Of a stretch of 64,000 nucleotides of DNA, positions 4,278 to 19,213 are shown piece after piece. Position 1 is the first letter of the stretch, and every line of letters begins with the position of its first letter. Position numbers and translations under genes: made by a program. The notes beneath the pieces were generated by a model. It did no database searches. It was not told where the DNA came from and worked only from the letters and a program-made list of their open reading frames with translations. Source of the stretch: a phage; sequence record PZ242158.1, one strand, 5' to 3'.

Positions 4278-4523
4278 ATGAACAAAGGGTGGACATTTGT
4301 AGACGGCGTTGAAAACATGCCTCTAGGAAAGTATATTGTAGCCATGGCAGATGAGAATGGTAAGGTAGATTTCGGAGCTTGCGAGATTGTTCTTGCAGGA
4401 TCTGGTGACCATGTGCACAAAACTGGGATAATTAACGGTCATTTCTACTTTGATTACAACCCTGTTGTGGCGTATATGGCTATGCCAGAATTCGAGTTCC
4501 CAAAGGAGGGTGCGGATGTTTAA
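4278..4523 (+). CDS. hypothetical protein
   Basis: ORF 81 aa with GGAG RBS. Confidence 0.45.
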   Translation: MNKGWTFVDGVENMPLGKYIVAMADENGKVDFGACEIVLAGSGDHVHKTGIINGHFYFDYNPVVAYMAMPEFEFPKEGADV

Positions 4524-4713
4524 GCTTAAATCTGCATGGAACATCGCTGTGGGAGACGAGATCCGCATCCCAGGCGGAAAGACAATCATGAAGATATCTC
4601 GTATCGAGTACGAAGGTGATCGTGTATTCCACATCTTTGCAGAAGATGGTCGAGAAATTTATATACAGGCAGGTTCTCACATTTATATCCGTAAGAAAGG
4701 GGACGACAAATGA
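4516..4713 (+). CDS. hypothetical small protein
   Basis: ATG preceded by AGGAGGG; overlaps upstream stop. Confidence 0.4.
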   Translation: MFKLKSAWNIAVGDEIRIPGGKTIMKISRIEYEGDRVFHIFAEDGREIYIQAGSHIYIRKKGDDK

Positions 4714-5039
4714 CAGAGATCATCATTTCAACTGCAGGGTATGTGTTCCTGACAATCATTGCACTGACTATTTTGGTTACAGTGTATGGGTTTGTTATCC
4801 TTCCTATCCTTGAGACATTTAGTTTGTGTCGGTGTTGGAGAAAAGCTTACGGGCCACAACCGTGGAAGGACTGGCCTCACCTGGTGCGCTTAGCGTTCTC
4901 TTATGCTTACGATCACTCTAGCAGTGCATGCATAACCGGATACCACGCCCACAATTGGAGCTGGGAAGGGTTGAGGAAGTGGAATGTTACAAAGACTATA
5001 CCTCTCCGCATGTATAAACCTAAAAACAAAGATAGCTGA
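4710..5039 (+). CDS. hypothetical membrane protein
   Basis: Two hydrophobic segments near N-terminus; ATGA start/stop overlap with upstream gene. Confidence 0.45.
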   Translation: MTEIIISTAGYVFLTIIALTILVTVYGFVILPILETFSLCRCWRKAYGPQPWKDWPHLVRLAFSYAYDHSSSACITGYHAHNWSWEGLRKWNVTKTIPLRMYKPKNKDS

Positions 5040-5340
5040 TACTTGAAAATTTCTGGCATATCAAGTATAAGGGGGATTTCTAAAATGGATTTCCTCCTTT
5101 TTGATATTTCACCAGGCCAGATATTTTAAAATTCTTAGAAAATCAGAAAACGGATAGAAAACTAAAATGGATTTTTCAGGGTAGACACGATGAGCTGAGC
5201 CACTCATCCTATCGTTTGCGTCATATTCCGGGCTACCATTCCAGATTTTCCGCGTATGCTCACACCCTTCTACCAGAACTTTCCCACTCGCCCTTGGCCT
5301 TTTATGGCAATAATCCAGCCACTATCTTGAAGTTGCGGTA

Positions 5341-5540
5341 CAGCTCTCCAAGTACTCGATCTGTTTTTCGTTTCAAAGATTGAATTTTCTGAAAATTTTT
5401 CTCGATAAATTTCTCAGTACTCGATCTGTTTTTCGTTTTCTGAATCGGATTTTCTGGAAATCGTTCCAGCTCTCGACCTGAAATTTTTGGGGACGAAATC
5501 GATTTTTCGTTTTCAGAAATGGATTTTTAAAATTTCTATA
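5341..5540. repeat. imperfect tandem repeat array (three units of about 52-74 bp sharing CAG(C/T)(A/T)CTCGA(T/C)CTG..TTTTTCGTTT)
   Basis: AGTACTCGATCTGTTTTTCGTTT present at 5351 and 5416; related unit at 5467. Confidence 0.6.
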
Positions 5541-5643
5541 TGGGAATATTTTATGGGATACTGTTTTATAGGAAATTGTTACGGAGGGTAATTAGCATGC
5601 TAATTAAATTTATTAAATGCGAGGAGTTCTCATTTAGAATTTT

Positions 5644-5660
5644 GAATGATAATCATTCTC
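5644..5660. promoter_or_regulatory. Fur-box-like palindrome GAATGATAATCATTCTC
   Basis: Core AATGATAATCATT matches the E. coli Fur box core (GATAATGATAATCATTATC). Confidence 0.4.
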
Positions 5661-5773
5661 GTTTGCAGAATAACGGGCAGGCCCGGTGATTGTCTCCCGG
5701 CCCCTGTTGCCCCGGCTTGTTATTATAGTATCACACAGGACAAAGAAAGCAAGGATTTTTTGCATAAATTTTT

Positions 5774-5799
5774 AAATGATAATGATAACCGTTCTCATT
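5774..5799. promoter_or_regulatory. Fur-box-like palindrome AATGATAATGATAACCGTTCTCATT
   Basis: Imperfect palindrome AATGATAAC-C-GTTCTCATT; related copies inside the 434-bp repeats. Confidence 0.35.
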
Positions 5800-6234
5800 T
5801 TATGCAGCGCCCATCCCCGGTGGTTGTCTCCCCCGTCACCGGTGCCTGCCGTCCTTTCGATAGGCATATTGTGCCACCTGGCGGGGCCGCTGTCAACACT
5901 TCTTCAAAAATTTTTTCTAACATAATGCACCAACCGCTGCAACCTGGCGGGGCCAGCCTGGCAGGACCTGACTGACCAGGTAGGAGAGAGTGAAAACTTG
6001 CAAACCTGGTAGGCCTATGCTACAGGGCAGGTAACAATTGAAGAGGAGGTACAAAAATGAAAAGTAATATAATCCCCTGGAAAATGTAGCGATCAACGCC
6101 GCTGAAGTTATCACCCTGGTTGAAAAGGCTATGGCGGGAGCGTTGGAACATAAAGAAGAGTACGAAAAATGATGGTTAACCTGGCAGGGGCGGCGGCTGG
6201 AGAATTCTTCCCAAAAAATAATTCTAACTAATGG

Positions 6235-6262
6235 TTGACAGCTCGGAGAGTTCTGTTATTCT
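6235..6262 (+). promoter_or_regulatory. sigma70-like promoter (TTGACA-16-TATTCT)
   Basis: Consensus -35 with 16-bp spacer upstream of 6316 gene. Confidence 0.45.
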
Positions 6263-6315
6263 TATCCTCGCAAGGTGAACAACACCACACTAATTAACAG
6301 AGAGGATAAAAAATC

Positions 6316-6513
6316 ATGAACGCCTACGGAATTAAAGTACGTCGCAACACTCACCAGGCCGTCACCGATCAAATGGTTTGCCAGGTGGACGTAACCATCA
6401 ACAACGGGCAAGGCCTTTATAAATTCCGTCGCGGTCAGAGCTATACCCGGCAACAGCTTAATCGTTGCGCCCTGACAAAAGGCCAGATCAACCACTGGTT
6501 TAATAAAAAATAA
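6316..6513 (+). CDS. hypothetical small protein
   Basis: AGAGAGGATAAAAAATC-ATG start context. Confidence 0.45.
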   Translation: MNAYGIKVRRNTHQAVTDQMVCQVDVTINNGQGLYKFRRGQSYTRQQLNRCALTKGQINHWFNKK

Positions 6514-6516
6514 GTA

Positions 6517-6545
6517 TTGACATATAGTCTGACACCAAATACACT
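6517..6545 (+). promoter_or_regulatory. sigma70-like promoter (TTGACA-17-TACACT)
   Basis: Consensus -35, 17-bp spacer. Confidence 0.45.
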
Positions 6546-6577
6546 AAAAGCACAAAAGACACTAAGAGGATAAAATC

Positions 6578-6976
6578 ATGAAAACCACTACCTTTAATTT
6601 TGATAATGCGGACTTTTCTTTTTCTGATGTCAAGAACTGCCGCCGTGATCGTGGATTTTACAAGGCTTATAATCTGGTGGGCCTGGACGATGACAATAAT
6701 TTGCACGAAGTAGCTGAGATCCGGTATTATGCCGCCGCCAGTGGTAACACTCACTACTGCGTGTTTTGGATTCACGACAACAAGAACAATAAGTACGGTT
6801 ATACTGGCGGCAAGGCGAGCGGTCACGGTTACGATAAAGCTAACGCAGCACTTGAGAGCGCATTAAATGCTATGGGGATCACTGCCGACGGCTGGATCTA
6901 CGAAGAAGAGTTTTTGTCGGCACTTGCTGACCACCTGGGCTATAAAAAGCACATTGTGACATGCGCCCACGAATAA
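6578..6976 (+). CDS. hypothetical protein
   Basis: AAGAGGATAAAATC-ATG start context. Confidence 0.5.
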   Translation: MKTTTFNFDNADFSFSDVKNCRRDRGFYKAYNLVGLDDDNNLHEVAEIRYYAAASGNTHYCVFWIHDNKNNKYGYTGGKASGHGYDKANAALESALNAMGITADGWIYEEEFLSALADHLGYKKHIVTCAHE

Positions 6977-6982
6977 AAATCA

Positions 6983-7010
6983 TTGACACGCTGCAAAATT
7001 TAAGTAAACT
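6983..7010 (+). promoter_or_regulatory. sigma70-like promoter (TTGACA-16-TAAACT) followed by 5'UTR hairpin GGCGGGAATGTTTCCCGCC
   Basis: Promoter plus perfect stem-loop at about 7021-7039. Confidence 0.45.
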
Positions 7011-7058
7011 AGACACAAAAGGCGGGAATGTTTCCCGCCAACACAAAGGAAAAAGATC

Positions 7059-7463
7059 ATGAATAAGAACGTACGCCGCATCATGAATGAACTGGCAAAC
7101 GATGAAAAAATTATTGACATGCATTTGATCAACATTTGCCGCCGTTGTGTAACATATAACAACCGCGCCGCAAAAGCGCGTGAGATGAACGCAAAAGGCA
7201 CCTTAAAGCCATTCCAGGTGGTGGTAAAGGCCATTAAAGATGTAACTAATACGGCAAACCAGGTACAGGGGAGCACCAACGAGAGTACCAATATTGATCC
7301 GGCTTACATCATGAAACGGATCCGGACCTGCAAGAACAAAGAGCAAGTGTATAATGTCATAGACTGGTTGGATTCTATGGGCGATGTGGTGTACAATAGA
7401 TTCTCTGCAGCTATTGAGATCCAGCTTGACAGGTTAGACGGTAAAGTACTTAAAACTTACTAA
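7059..7463 (+). CDS. hypothetical protein
   Basis: ORF 134 aa with upstream promoter and hairpin. Confidence 0.5.
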   Translation: MNKNVRRIMNELANDEKIIDMHLINICRRCVTYNNRAAKAREMNAKGTLKPFQVVVKAIKDVTNTANQVQGSTNESTNIDPAYIMKRIRTCKNKEQVYNVIDWLDSMGDVVYNRFSAAIEIQLDRLDGKVLKTY

Positions 7464-7474
7464 ATTTATTTTTA

Positions 7475-7510
7475 GATGGCCTTGACTCCAGGGCCATCAA
7501 TAAAGTAAAT
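7475..7510 (+). promoter_or_regulatory. repeated terminator-hairpin/promoter module (GATGGCCTTGACTCCAGGGCCATC hairpin containing TTGACT -35, 17-bp spacer, GTAAAT -10)
   Basis: Near-identical 45-bp element recurs at 8096 and 11836. Confidence 0.45.
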
Positions 7511-7543: not shown

Positions 7544-7663
7544 ATGAGCACTACACGCCAATACACAAAGGTAACTATTATCGCCTGCGTTGTCGGTTAC
7601 ATCCTGGCGCAAATGTTAATGAGCAGCGCTAACAGTTTTGCAAAATTTTTCTTAAATTTTTAA
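7544..7663 (+). CDS. small hydrophobic peptide (39 aa)
   Basis: AAGGGGG RBS; hydrophobic core IIACVVGYILAQML; below ORF-track size cutoff. Confidence 0.3.
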   Translation: MSTTRQYTKVTIIACVVGYILAQMLMSSANSFAKFFLNF

Positions 7664-12788: not shown

Positions 12789-13073
12789 ATGGCTATTGTT
12801 ACCGTTGGCGATGTAGTAGAAATGGAAGCCAAATACTTAAAAGCTGGTATGCATATCATACGGAATGATCAAGAATTGTTATTAACCATGGTTGAATATA
12901 ATCCCGGTCAGGATTATCCAAGCATTGACTACTTTTTCCAGTATGTTGATGAAGAATTAAAAGAGGATGAGGCTTATCAGGGTGAATTTTGTAATTTCTT
13001 TTGCCCTGATGAGGTTGTAAAAGTTATCTATCAACCTGGCGTACCTTTCCCGCTGCACGCTATCAACAAATAA
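12789..13073 (+). CDS. hypothetical acidic protein
   Basis: ATAGGAGTTAAAACC-ATG. Confidence 0.5.
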   Translation: MAIVTVGDVVEMEAKYLKAGMHIIRNDQELLLTMVEYNPGQDYPSIDYFFQYVDEELKEDEAYQGEFCNFFCPDEVVKVIYQPGVPFPLHAINK

Positions 13074-13128
13074 ACCTGGCGGGGCCGAAAAGGCCCCCAA
13101 TTATGAAAATAAAGAGAGGCAAATCATC

Positions 13129-14750: not shown

Positions 14751-14963
14751 TCCTTATAAACTACAAAACAGGGCTTGCAATGGTCCTGTTTTTTTGTTAT
14801 ACTTGTTTCACGGCAGGCACCTGGCGACGGGGGGAGACAATCACCGGGTGTGCCTGCTATATAAAAACTATAAAAACCGTTGACATCTGCCAGGTGCTGG
14901 GGTAGCATTTATCTCGAAGGGGGCAAAAGCGCCCACACAACAACCGGAAGAGAGGAAAACGCC

Positions 14964-16125: not shown

Positions 16126-16785
16126 TTTTTTAACTGAATTATCAAGGGGCTTAGGTCCCTTTCTTTTTGTCTGCTCTTCCTCCCTACCATAAACGGCCCT
16201 ACCTGGCAAGTGGAATAATTGACGAGCCATCAATCCCACACACTGTACAAATATACATGTAAAATAACTATTGCATAACCTTTCATTGTGTGGTAGCGGT
16301 GCTATTTTTACCCGTTTTCCTTCCAAAATTGCACGTAATGCAGCTATTGCACAAAATTTAACCTGATGCGCATCTTCAATATCTTGTCAACAACTAAAAA
16401 TCTTTATAAGTCATACACTTACACAAACCAAAAAGCGTGTTCTACGTGAAAAATCGAGTATAACTATAGCCGACAGATCTCAGAATTTACGTACGCTCAC
16501 CATTCTATAGCCTGCTAAGTATTTATTCCGACCATAGAATAACAGAATAGTCAATACCTGCATAAAATAATTATTCGTTTAAATTGCATAACATAAATCA
16601 GCTCAGGTGTCAACATTTTTCGTAAACAGTCTGAAATTGTCACGGCAAGTTATCATAATCAGAGAAATCTTTAGTCGTCTAATGTTTACTGTACGTTACT
16701 ATACTAACTGGAATCATTAGATGACTAATAGAAAGATAAGAAATAATTAACAATACAATTATTTTATCTGTAACAATAAGGCAAC

Positions 16786-16950
16786 TATGCAAACGAATGG
16801 CATGGCGCGACGGAGTCGCGACATAATATAAAAGCAGTAACCATCACCCCCGTGATAGTTTGTCTGCAATCTATTAATCAGATCATAGTTGCCTTGTATT
16901 TAGTTAATCATGACATAACAAGCAAGGCAACTATAGATCTTCTAATAGTT
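16786..16950. repeat. iteron-like inverted repeats (AAGGCAACTAT / ATAGTTGCCTTG) with palindrome GCGACGGAGTCGC
   Basis: GGCAACTAT occurs twice direct and twice inverted within about 160 bp; ATGCAAACGAATGGCATGGC also repeated at 16797 and 17059. Confidence 0.5.
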
Positions 16951-17191
16951 GCCCTGCTTTTATATTATGTCATATATTATTAACTTGTTAATTGTTAGTC
17001 AGTCAAATCAACAGCGTTATCATTTCAGTCTTTATTGTTGTTGATCGTTATTGTTATCATGCAAACGAATGGCATGGCTTATCATCTCTGTATAAACAGT
17101 TTATGCGTGAACAGTGAGGCATGCAATAGTAACAATTGTTATTGTGTCATCATGTCAAGGGTAAAGTGTCATAGTATGTCAGACATGTTTT

Positions 17192-17625
17192 TCCCCTCTT
17201 TGTCAAGTGCTGCATGAAAAAATTTACAAGCTGGTATGGTAGCATTTTTGCGGCCTTGTTTACATTCAGGAGTGTATGTATAATCCTTGTTGTGTGGGCG
17301 TTTATACGTCTGGACGGTCAGAAGTCTGCAGGTTAATATCTAATCTATTGGCTGCTAACTATATCCCACACAAATGATAAGAAATATAATTGTTATATGC
17401 GTAAACTGTAACTCATGTTATCAATCCCTGTATGTATCGCCAGTGGTGCGCATAATGGGTATTATGTTAAATTGCCCGTAATGATAACAGTTCTCACAAT
17501 GATAGGTATTCTCATTCATCCACACAAAATAGGTTGCAAATGTTGTGCCACTGTGTGAACGGCCTGGCCTATTAATTTCTCTCACTGCCTCGATATTTGA
17601 GAATTGTTATAAGAATGAGAAGTAT
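17192..17625. repeat. 434-bp direct repeat, copy 1
   Basis: Identical to 17752-18185 by visual comparison. Confidence 0.85.
17256..17284 (+). promoter_or_regulatory. sigma70-like promoter inside repeat copy 1 (TTGTTT-17-TATAAT)
   Basis: Perfect -10 hexamer with 17-bp spacer; no ORF downstream. Confidence 0.4.
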
Positions 17626-17751
17626 CCATGTTTATATTACATCTACTTGGTTCAGAACCAAAATGCGCGAAAGCGTTTCACGATAACTAGCGACCACGGT
17701 CTGTTCCCTGGCGGCCATACGGCTTCTACTGAACGCAGCAGAGGGCGATAA

Positions 17752-18185
17752 TCCCCTCTTTGTCAAGTGCTGCATGAAAAAATTTACAAGCTGGTATGGT
17801 AGCATTTTTGCGGCCTTGTTTACATTCAGGAGTGTATGTATAATCCTTGTTGTGTGGGCGTTTATACGTCTGGACGGTCAGAAGTCTGCAGGTTAATATC
17901 TAATCTATTGGCTGCTAACTATATCCCACACAAATGATAAGAAATATAATTGTTATATGCGTAAACTGTAACTCATGTTATCAATCCCTGTATGTATCGC
18001 CAGTGGTGCGCATAATGGGTATTATGTTAAATTGCCCGTAATGATAACAGTTCTCACAATGATAGGTATTCTCATTCATCCACACAAAATAGGTTGCAAA
18101 TGTTGTGCCACTGTGTGAACGGCCTGGCCTATTAATTTCTCTCACTGCCTCGATATTTGAGAATTGTTATAAGAATGAGAAGTAT
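17752..18185. repeat. 434-bp direct repeat, copy 2
   Basis: Identical to copy 1; 126-bp unique spacer between copies. Confidence 0.85.
17816..17844 (+). promoter_or_regulatory. sigma70-like promoter inside repeat copy 2 (TTGTTT-17-TATAAT)
   Basis: Same as copy 1. Confidence 0.4.
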
Positions 18186-19213
18186 TCCCATTCCGTCCGC
18201 CTGGCAGCGCTCCTGTAGGTCCTGCAAGGACTCTAGCTTTCAGCTAGACCCTTCGGGCCTCCCTACAGGTCAGGTCAAAATCGTGGTAGAATTGGGCCTA
18301 TTCAGATATTTCTGGCTGACTCTTCAGGTCTGTGTGGGAAAAGCCAACCTCTCCGGCGGGGCAGGGGGAGGTCAATTAAAAAATTTACGTGGTGTATGAA
18401 GCGCTCTTCAGGTAAGGCAGGTATTATGGGATGAAACCCTCTTCAGGCAATGATATTTGTGGGTGTGATATTTGCTGGAAAGCCAGATATGACGGGACTC
18501 CCGGCGGGGCAGGGGTAGTACAGACAGGGAAAATATGAGAATGTAGTTGGGGAAATTGATCAGACAGGTAGAGTATGGAATATGTTACAAGTATGTTAAA
18601 TATGGAGGTTGAATATCTGTAGGATTTGTGTGTAAAATCAAAGACTTAAGGGGTGTTGTGATATTTTCTATAAATAATTCAAGTTTAATAGGTGATATTT
18701 GTCTCTATCCGCTTTGTGTGGTAAACAGATTCAGATGAGATTGGTTTACAAGTGTATACATAATATACAAATTAAAGATACAAGAAACCCCCCATCCCCC
18801 TTCGGCTACCATTCACCTTTTCCTCTGACTGGTACTTAAACACTTATTCAGACTCTTCAGGTTATCACCCATATATCATATGGCAGTGACTGGTGTCCTC
18901 CGGCCCCTCTTTCGTCACCCGTCCGCTTCGCCATGCTAATGCCATAGCCAATGGTTCGGTTGTTCACCCTGTTCACTCAGGTGTATCTCCATACCCCTTC
19001 AAACCGAAGAGAACAGAAAACCCGAATTACTCGGTAAAAGAAAAGAGAAGAACTTAATTTTATCAGGATAGGCAAGAATGTCAAGGCATGACTGCTCACT
19101 AAACAAGCAAACAGTCATGTGTGGGAGGTAAGTGATTGTGGTGGTGGGAAATTTAGTTGAAAGATGTGTTATAGGTGCGCTTCCAGCACTTTAGCCGGGC
19201 AGCTAATTGTGTG

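Follow-up and report, generated by a model that had tools for sequence, protein, structure and literature searches.

This locus raises the question of why a virulent phage genome should carry, in DNA without genes, palindromes resembling the operators of the bacterial iron repressor Fur. The stretch concerned (referred to as the window) comprises 64,000 nucleotides of phage sequence record PZ242158.1, and the palindromes, first pointed out in a sequence-only reading, lie at 5644-5799 within a 1.27-kb region free of genes (NCR1, 5040-6315) between the homologues of the open reading frames (ORFs) ORF200 and ORF196 of phage rV5. Fur boxes belong to the textbook description of iron promoters in bacteria. 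No report of such boxes as conserved features of virulent phage genomes was found in the literature searched, and the genome paper of rV5 does not mention them (PMC3606486). Comparison with E. coli Fur sites, with related phages and with bacterial genomes suggests that the palindromes are probably operators for host Fur-Fe2+ that overlap conserved sigma-70 promoters and form part of a non-coding control module.

Megablast with 4500-7500 as the query matched 129 phage records and placed the window in the rV5 group (genus Vequintavirus); 113 of these records cover at least 80% of the query, mostly at 90-95% identity, and all of them belong to this group, whose members are virulent E. coli myoviruses. 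The genes near NCR1 are oriented from left to right. A second gene-free region of 3.1 kb (NCR2, 16126-19213) is located where rightward and leftward gene blocks converge, and contains an exact 434-bp repeat (17192-17625 is identical to 17752-18185).

The earlier observation of an exact Fur core in NCR1 was borne out: GAATGATAATCATTCTC occupies 5644-5660 and contains the core AATGATAATCATT without a mismatch. The surrounding box 1 (5642-5666, plus strand) consists of two overlapping 19-mers offset by 6 bp, of which 5642-5660 agrees with the Fur 19-mer GATAATGATAATCATTATC at 15 of 19 positions, and carries the palindrome AATGATAATCATTCTCGTT at 5645-5663. Box 2 (5772-5802, plus strand) comprises three registers with 6-bp offsets. 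Its palindrome AATGATAACCGTTCTCATT has the 9-1-9 form that had been proposed, with eight of nine arm pairs, and is located at 5781-5799 rather than at 5778-5796; the Fur 19-mer register GATAATGATAACCGTTCTC begins at 5778 and agrees with the consensus at 16 of 19 positions. With no more than three mismatches allowed, the Fur 19-mer occurs in the window once, at 5778, where 0.01 occurrences are expected. The related copies reported in NCR2 were found as well (17480-17498 with 17498-17516, and 18040-18058 with 18058-18076), both pairs inside the 434-bp repeat. They form a double box, AATGATAACAGTTCTCACA and AATGATAGGTATTCTCATT set 18 bp apart, whose first copy spans 17477-17516 (plus strand; 17477-17495 agrees with the Fur 19-mer consensus at 13 of 19 positions) and whose second copy (18037-18076, plus strand) is the same sequence, a product of the exact repeat. 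The shared motif AATGATANNNNTTCTCA occurs six times at one mismatch or fewer, always on the plus strand, compared with 0.13 occurrences expected; since two of the six sites are duplicates within the 434-bp repeat, they represent four independent boxes. A fifth, box 0 (5616-5634, plus strand), is a degenerate Fur-like palindrome, AATGCGAGGAGTTCTCATT, 29 bp 5′ of box 1; it has two mismatches to the phage box consensus given below and sits where the arrays of phages GAP31 and Mydo have their upstream box. A weaker Fur-like site, ACAAATGATAAGAAATATA (17370-17388, plus strand; 16.5 bits), lies in the 434-bp repeat and has a twin at 17930-17948.

The bit scores were obtained with a weight matrix of 19 columns, built from the best site in each of 13 Fur-regulated promoters of E. 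coli K-12 MG1655 (fhuA, fepA-fes, fepD-entS, fepB-entC, fecA, fecI, tonB, exbB, cirA, fiu, ryhB, fur, and fhuF) within ten MG1655 regions amounting to 63.4 kb. The training sites score 16.5-24.4 bits, or 11.6-22.5 bits when each is left out in turn. Scored against background, the five best positions of the 64-kb window proved to be those singled out by the sequence-only reading: 5778-5796 (21.9 bits, the highest in the window), 5648-5666 on the minus strand (19.0 bits), 5642-5660 on the plus strand (18.7 bits), and 17477 and 18037 (18.4 bits each). The side registers of box 2 reach 14.1 bits at 5772 and 16.4 bits at 5784 (minus strand). The five top scores are within the range of the E. coli fhuF, ryhB, fecI, and entC sites, and the NCR2 double box is a somewhat weaker Fur match with 18.4 and 12.4 bits. 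Four clusters of at least 18 bits were counted in the window versus 0.2 expected, and eight of at least 16 bits versus 0.9; a Markov simulation and a shuffle of 200-nt blocks, which keeps the local AT content, agree on these expectations. A complete 136.6-kb relative, 96-98% identical, gave three clusters of at least 18 bits versus 0.41 expected, and its sole sites at this level are two in NCR1 and one in NCR2. The 6-bp offsets, 5642 (plus) with 5648 (minus) and 5772 with 5778 and 5784, recur in relatives, and clustered overlapping sites, offset by 6 (or 3) bp, are the pattern of real, footprinted Fur sites according to Chen et al. 2007 (PMC2189734). A further Fur-like site at 7564-7582 is intergenic and 5′ of the ORF192 homologue (compare L002:4549-4567); near ORF192 such a site is strong in ECML-10 (18.8 bits), reaches 15.2 bits in rV5, and is weak in the window (12.5 bits).

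Other sequences of the genus that retain the boxes are those of rV5, ECML-10, navn, and two IMG/VR contigs; a search for more rV5-like IMG/VR sequences by means of the ORF200 protein yielded two loci. Box 2 of rV5 reads GATAATGATAATCGTTCTC and scores 22.9 bits. Both rV5 and navn retain the NCR2 boxes, most of the differences falling on the central bases, and in the navn record the pair carries the annotation repeat_region. Sensitive blastn of 5540-5990 extended the comparison to 251 records. Outside the genus, the box 1 region and the next 40-100 nt are kept at 72-86% identity, in Phapecoctavirus, Mydovirus, Seunavirus, and Certrevirus, and in phages of Serratia, Salmonella, Klebsiella, Enterobacter, and Pectobacterium. 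The Vequintavirinae and Stephanstirmvirinae, unnamed relatives included, share arrays of one to four boxes. The 36 boxes of 13 arrays gave the consensus AATGA(T/G)AATCATTCTCATT, and their frequency matrix correlates with the E. coli matrix at r = 0.91 in register, compared with at most 0.46 out of register. In most arrays the box starts are 29 bp apart while the 10-bp spacers vary in sequence, so the spacing itself appears to be constrained. The last box of an array is nearly invariant across genera, and it alone is preceded by TTG.

That this variant of the box is used by bacteria in Fur regulons is indicated by the distribution of the exact pan-genus 19-mer AATGATAATCATTCTCATT, from which the boxes of the window differ by one to three bases. 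At least 120 bacterial genomes, from many different phyla, contain it, compared with about four chance hits expected in 596 Gb at uniform base composition; among the matches listed are Bacillus, Paenibacillus, Legionella, SAR86, Chloroflexi, and cyanobacteria. Among the 120 bacterial loci listed, 108 have an ORF start no more than 300 bp from the 19-mer, and only six place it inside a long ORF. Among the 131 ORFs flanking the 19-mer in these loci are those for 13 TonB-dependent receptors, eight members of the FUR family, seven iron-type solute-binding proteins, seven Cupredoxin_1, six DUF2325, four ZnuA, three Peripla_BP_2, and two ferritins. Among 131 control ORFs from the same loci, each at a distance of more than 2.5 kb, no family has more than two members. 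The iron-gene neighbours, none of them enriched among the distal controls, therefore argue that the box variant serves Fur regulons across bacteria.

The same 19-mer was found in at least 120 IMG/VR contigs of unrelated viruses. Here the neighbouring ORFs encode small uncharacterised proteins, Rha or Ant regulators, terminase small subunits, and one NrdA; no iron-uptake gene was seen among the ORFs adjoining the listed viral loci, which indicates that these are real phage contexts. Some unrelated viral contigs carry dense Fur-like arrays with four to eight boxes per 400 nt (L214:2790-3060 and L132:2360-2750, and also L212, L203, L183, L174, and L138). In contig L214, eight boxes with a repeated ATTCTCATTT occupy 250 nt of ORF-poor DNA, and 23 sites of at least 15 bits occur in 13 kb. 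Arrays of this kind may be a general feature of phages.

Direct comparison with E. coli operators revealed that box 1 has 16 bases, ATAATCATTCTCGTTT, in common with the Fur box of the fhuA promoter, an oligonucleotide of which has been reported to be gel-shifted by Fur, and that the pan-genus box has 15 bases, ATAATCATTCTCATT, in common with the Fur box over the ryhB -10 region. Capture of a host ryhB or fhuA promoter was considered and rejected. Sequence similarity does not extend beyond the operator, which makes convergence more likely than transfer.

Around the boxes, a block of 640 bp (5350-5990) is conserved, composed of two tandem modules with CTCGATC direct repeats upstream. Across five genomes, 0.65-1.0 of the columns are identical per 20-nt bin (0.3 in bin 5370) versus 0.15-0.5 in flanking spacer bins and 0.1-0.7 over 5170-5350 and 5990-6210, and for the most part the block matches the flanking genes in conservation. 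It is non-coding and under purifying selection, and the ORF annotated over it is spurious. The ORF in question, rV5 ORF198, whose ATG falls within box 1, was rejected as a gene: substitutions are spread evenly over the codon positions (13/14/13, versus 16/10/47 in ORF200), and the frame is disrupted by 1-nt indels, shrinks to 7 amino acids in L260, and meets a stop at codon 8 in Mydo. No convincing small leftward ORF was found in NCR1 either. At 5340-5530, the upstream part carries three direct repeats of about 65 nt with (A/T)CTCGATC, together with four copies of TTTCTAAAATGGATTT. Repeats of the GGTCTCGATCG type are also located 5′ of the box arrays of CB7, POP18, CR8, and one IMG/VR contig (L008, L261, L264, and L148), and may represent a second conserved protein-binding motif beside the Fur arrays.

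The paralogous modules (repeats D5 and D7) share one order of elements, namely one or two boxes, a GC-rich element, and a leftward sigma-70 promoter. Predicted leftward promoters are located at 5725-5752 in unit 1 (minus strand; TTGCTT at 5752-5747, 16 nt, and TACTAT at 5730-5725, with an extended -10 TG) and at 5868-5896 in unit 2 (minus strand; TTGACA-17-CACAAT, extended -10 TG, 10 of 12 consensus positions). By consensus matching, a leftward promoter of good quality occurs at one place in all 13 arrays, in variants such as TTGATC-16-TATTAT or TTGCAA-17-TATATT elsewhere, and the conservation of this place combined with a varying spacer sequence is the pattern of a real promoter. The predicted transcript would run about 55 nt to reach the last box. 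Two further candidate promoters overlap box 1 itself. A rightward sigma-70 candidate (5642-5671, plus strand) consists of TTGAAT (5642-5647), 18 nt, and CAGAAT (5666-5671), so that box 1 is its spacer, and TTGAAT-18-CAGAAT is predicted in eight of the 13 array sequences. A leftward candidate (5667-5696, minus strand) consists of GAGACA (5696-5691), 18 nt, and TATTCT (5672-5667), with its start site in box 1; the corresponding GAGACA/AAGACA-18-TATTCT/CATTCT is likewise predicted in eight of 13.

Between the leftward promoter and box 1 lies the GC-rich element (5682-5698, minus strand), whose sense sequence is GGGAGACAATCACCGGG and whose core GGTGnTTGT is invariant across genera. Other copies are found at 5816-5832 (minus strand) and 14832-14848 (plus strand), making three where 1.3 chance matches are expected at three mismatches. 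The third copy points in gene direction and is accompanied by GAGACA-18-TATATA (14836-14865, read by eye) and by no Fur box. Each copy is situated directly 3′ of an extended -10 promoter, and the stems differ among the copies yet still pair. Another intergenic motif, CCTGGCGGGGCC / CCGGCGGGGCAGGGG, recurs at 5875-5971, 6178-6194, 13073-13087, 18353-18370, and 18501-18518, and supplies the GC-rich spacer of at least one sigma-70 promoter (5868-5896).

Taken together, these features favour host Fur as the reader of the boxes. In an iron-replete host, Fur dimers would occupy the array, occlude the promoter or promoters overlapping the last box, and block the transcript coming from the upstream leftward promoter, whereas in an iron-starved host the boxes would be free and non-coding transcription across the module would rise. 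Since neither direction leads into a conserved ORF, the regulated product would probably be a non-coding or antisense transcript. The sequence-only reading had left open whether the sites would answer to host iron status or to a phage repressor with Fur-like specificity. The former is favoured by the spread of the 19-mer across unrelated viral contigs and by the lack of a Fur homologue in the Vequintavirinae: a tblastn search of 50,697 phage records with E. coli Fur as the query gave 31 matches, none of them in this subfamily, the search being confined to the Fur family among DNA-binding proteins. A phage-encoded Fur was rejected on this basis.

Several points weigh against control of transcription by host Fur. 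The training sites of the matrix were picked by consensus and are not footprinted coordinates. C occupies box position 14 in 33 of the 36 phage boxes compared with 3 of the 13 E. coli training sites, the boxes have a single orientation, and the 29-bp phase is no multiple of the 6-bp Fur register; the position-14 C, the fixed orientation, and the phase could point to a different reader or to a higher-order assembly of Fur. The promoter calls are consensus matches, and 4900-6500 is no richer in them than shuffled sequence. Among genera, the -10 elements of the candidate overlapping promoters vary, the rightward one having no A at -11 in Mydo and CB7. Unit 2 of this phage has no good overlapping promoter, and the NCR2 boxes lie mid-way in 3.1 kb of gene-free DNA with just a weak promoter-like site preceding them. 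Finally, nothing on the transcriptome of these phages or on transcription in the Vequintavirinae was found in the literature searched.

The search for an RNA product bears on the proposal that the sites tie the expression of particular nearby genes or non-coding RNAs to iron, and this part of the earlier reading found no support. With the gathering threshold, Rfam detected only transfer RNAs (tRNAs) in the window; there was nothing meaningful in 4900-6500, and no match with E ≤ 1 in four distant loci. A conserved hairpin 3′ of the box was rejected: the GC-rich element folds when sequences are taken singly, but RNAalifold on the 13 arrays gave -3.7 kcal/mol with neither a consensus structure nor covariation. 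The folds of the window stretch and of the downstream element of GAP31 were no better than those of shuffles. A second conserved element of GAP31, Mydo, CB7, and phAPEC8 (ACCGGCGATCC...GGGGTGGCG) was also considered; the window lacks it, and rV5-like phages have a second copy of the box module in its position. In GAP31, phAPEC8, Mydo, CB7, and their relatives, a duplicated CTTTACA comes after the box module, and then a highly conserved GC-rich stretch of about 110 nt, ACCGGCGATCCACCTTCC...GTTAGCCCCGCCTTTTCGCCGTGGGGTGGCG (L005:1335-1465, L006:1355-1480, L007:1345-1470, and L008:1310-1440). This stretch ends in a terminator-like hairpin with a U-run, is absent from the window, has no Rfam match, and is a candidate phage small RNA.

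Among the rival explanations, a Fur decoy or sponge survives best, although it is judged unlikely as the whole account. Hundreds of replicated genome copies, each with three to seven strong boxes able to bind two dimers per box, would titrate host Fur and derepress host iron uptake to the benefit of phage replication, with no promoter needed. This would suit the NCR2 boxes, which have no convincing promoter or gene partner, and the regular phasing of arrays that exceed the needs of one promoter. Among the matches listed, two or more boxes within 200 nt are found at 40 of 120 viral loci (33%) compared with 12 of 120 bacterial loci (10%), and the densest viral contigs, with their four to eight boxes per 400 nt, extend this excess. 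A multicopy Fur box is known to titrate the repressor and derepress a Fur reporter, which is the principle of the Fur titration assay. Fur is, however, present at several thousand molecules per cell, and just three sites of at least 18 bits occur per genome. The last box is moreover fixed relative to conserved flanking promoter-like elements across genera, which a pure sponge would not need. Lytic phages have been reported to induce iron-uptake genes in iron-replete medium, an effect left unexplained (PMC6024767) and consistent with titration. Control by host Fur and titration of Fur are not mutually exclusive.

Alternatively, the boxes could be operators of a phage repressor outside the Fur family that has converged on a Fur-like palindrome, with arrays resembling lambdoid operators, an explanation regarded as improbable. 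Variation is lower among the phage boxes than among E. coli sites: 33 of 36 carry TTCTC, and the boxes are discrete, face one way, and keep a 29-bp phase. They adjoin conserved face-to-face promoter candidates in a layout typical of phage switches. Yet the box is identical to sequences beside Fur-regulon genes and fur itself in many bacterial phyla, and shares 15-16 nt with the ryhB and fhuA boxes. One shared phage repressor cannot explain the spread of the 19-mer over at least 120 unrelated viral contigs. Across genera with diverged proteins the box is also invariant, as would fit a site read by a highly conserved host protein, and the tblastn search, aimed at the Fur family, gave no homologue in the Vequintavirinae.

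Very improbable is the view that the boxes serve a replication origin or packaging region as structural DNA (iterons or an AT-rich unwinding element) and resemble Fur sites only incidentally, for although iteron-like repeats occur in NCR1 (the CTCGATC units at 5340-5530) and NCR2 (the ATAGTTGCC units at 16770-16962), promoters aimed at an AT-rich segment recall R-loop origins, and the authors of the rV5 genome could not locate an origin (PMC3606486), AT-preserving block shuffles fail to reproduce the Fur scores, conservation is base-specific at the Fur-critical half-sites while the central bases vary, and GAP31 and Mydo have boxes without upstream iterons.

Other observations concern NCR2 and the records. 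NCR2 was drawn as a 'non-coding' box in the rV5 paper, with no terminators found there (PMC3606486). The iteron-like repeats at 16770-16962 are direct and inverted copies of ATAGTTGCC / GGCAACTAT, a perfect 18-nt inverted repeat pairs 16820-16837 with 16954-16971, and the exact 434-bp duplication is absent from the relatives examined. In the relative OR844766.1 an assembly break falls inside NCR2, which is possibly an origin or packaging region. Within the tRNA cluster at 62085-62897, ARAGORN called a 99-nt tRNA at 62554-62652 with undetermined identity and a four-base anticodon (atcc); its Rfam score is just 35.5 bits, and it could be intron-containing, frameshift-suppressor-like, or degenerate. 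About 17-19 records of the series MG065646-MG065677, named 'Campylobacter phage' with Campylobacter jejuni as the host, are 92-94% identical to the window over the tested regions, and their phage names or hosts look doubtful.

With regard to significance, a conserved 640-bp non-coding control block has been identified under a current annotation as an ORF. If Fur binds there, a strictly lytic family in wide use for biocontrol and therapy of E. coli O157 would have a built-in sensor of host iron, and since the gut and infected tissue are iron-limited, the behaviour of these phages there could differ from that in rich broth. As a tentative generalisation, Fur-box arrays might be a widespread phage device, acting as a Fur sponge, as an iron-gated switch of non-coding transcription, or as both; a sponge role of phage DNA for Fur was not described in the papers that could be searched. 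If this were true, virulent phages could sense or rewire host iron homeostasis via phased high-affinity operators, and the induction of iron-uptake genes in lytic infection despite plentiful iron would be explained (PMC6024767).

Among known systems, the closest likeness is to the E. coli ryhB, fhuA, and fecI operators (19-bp GATAATGATAATCATTATC, 7-1-7 TGATAATnATTATCA), with which the phage boxes have in common the inverted repeat, the ...CATTCTC variant, overlapping sites at 6 bp, and the range of scores. Unlike these operators, the phage boxes are located in gene-free DNA of a virulent phage with no iron-related gene following, and they are discrete units in a 29-bp phase with an almost fixed ...TTCTC half-site rather than contiguous hexamer runs. 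The multi-site Fur clusters of the host likewise hold several Fur sites in a short stretch (Chen et al. 2007, PMC2189734). By sequence, the phage elements display the hallmarks of Fur boxes: a 19-bp inverted repeat with a 7-1-7 core, a matrix score in the range of E. coli sites, clustering at 6 bp, and, for the pan-genus box, use by bacteria. A host Fur box on phage DNA also has a precedent in the stx1 promoter of Stx1-converting prophages, which is Fur-regulated and couples a phage-borne locus to iron; that case is one toxin-cargo promoter of a temperate phage, whereas the present arrays lie in non-coding control regions of virulent myoviruses from two subfamilies. In their geometry, the modules resemble the face-to-face promoter switches of coliphage 186 (pR/pL) and P22 (ant/sar), as the convergent candidate promoters are separated by a few tens of bp and flanked on one side by an operator, an arrangement that allows transcriptional interference or antisense control. 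In 186 and P22, a phage repressor reads the operator and the transcripts encode known genes, whereas here the proposed reader is a metal sensor of the host and both transcripts appear to be non-coding.

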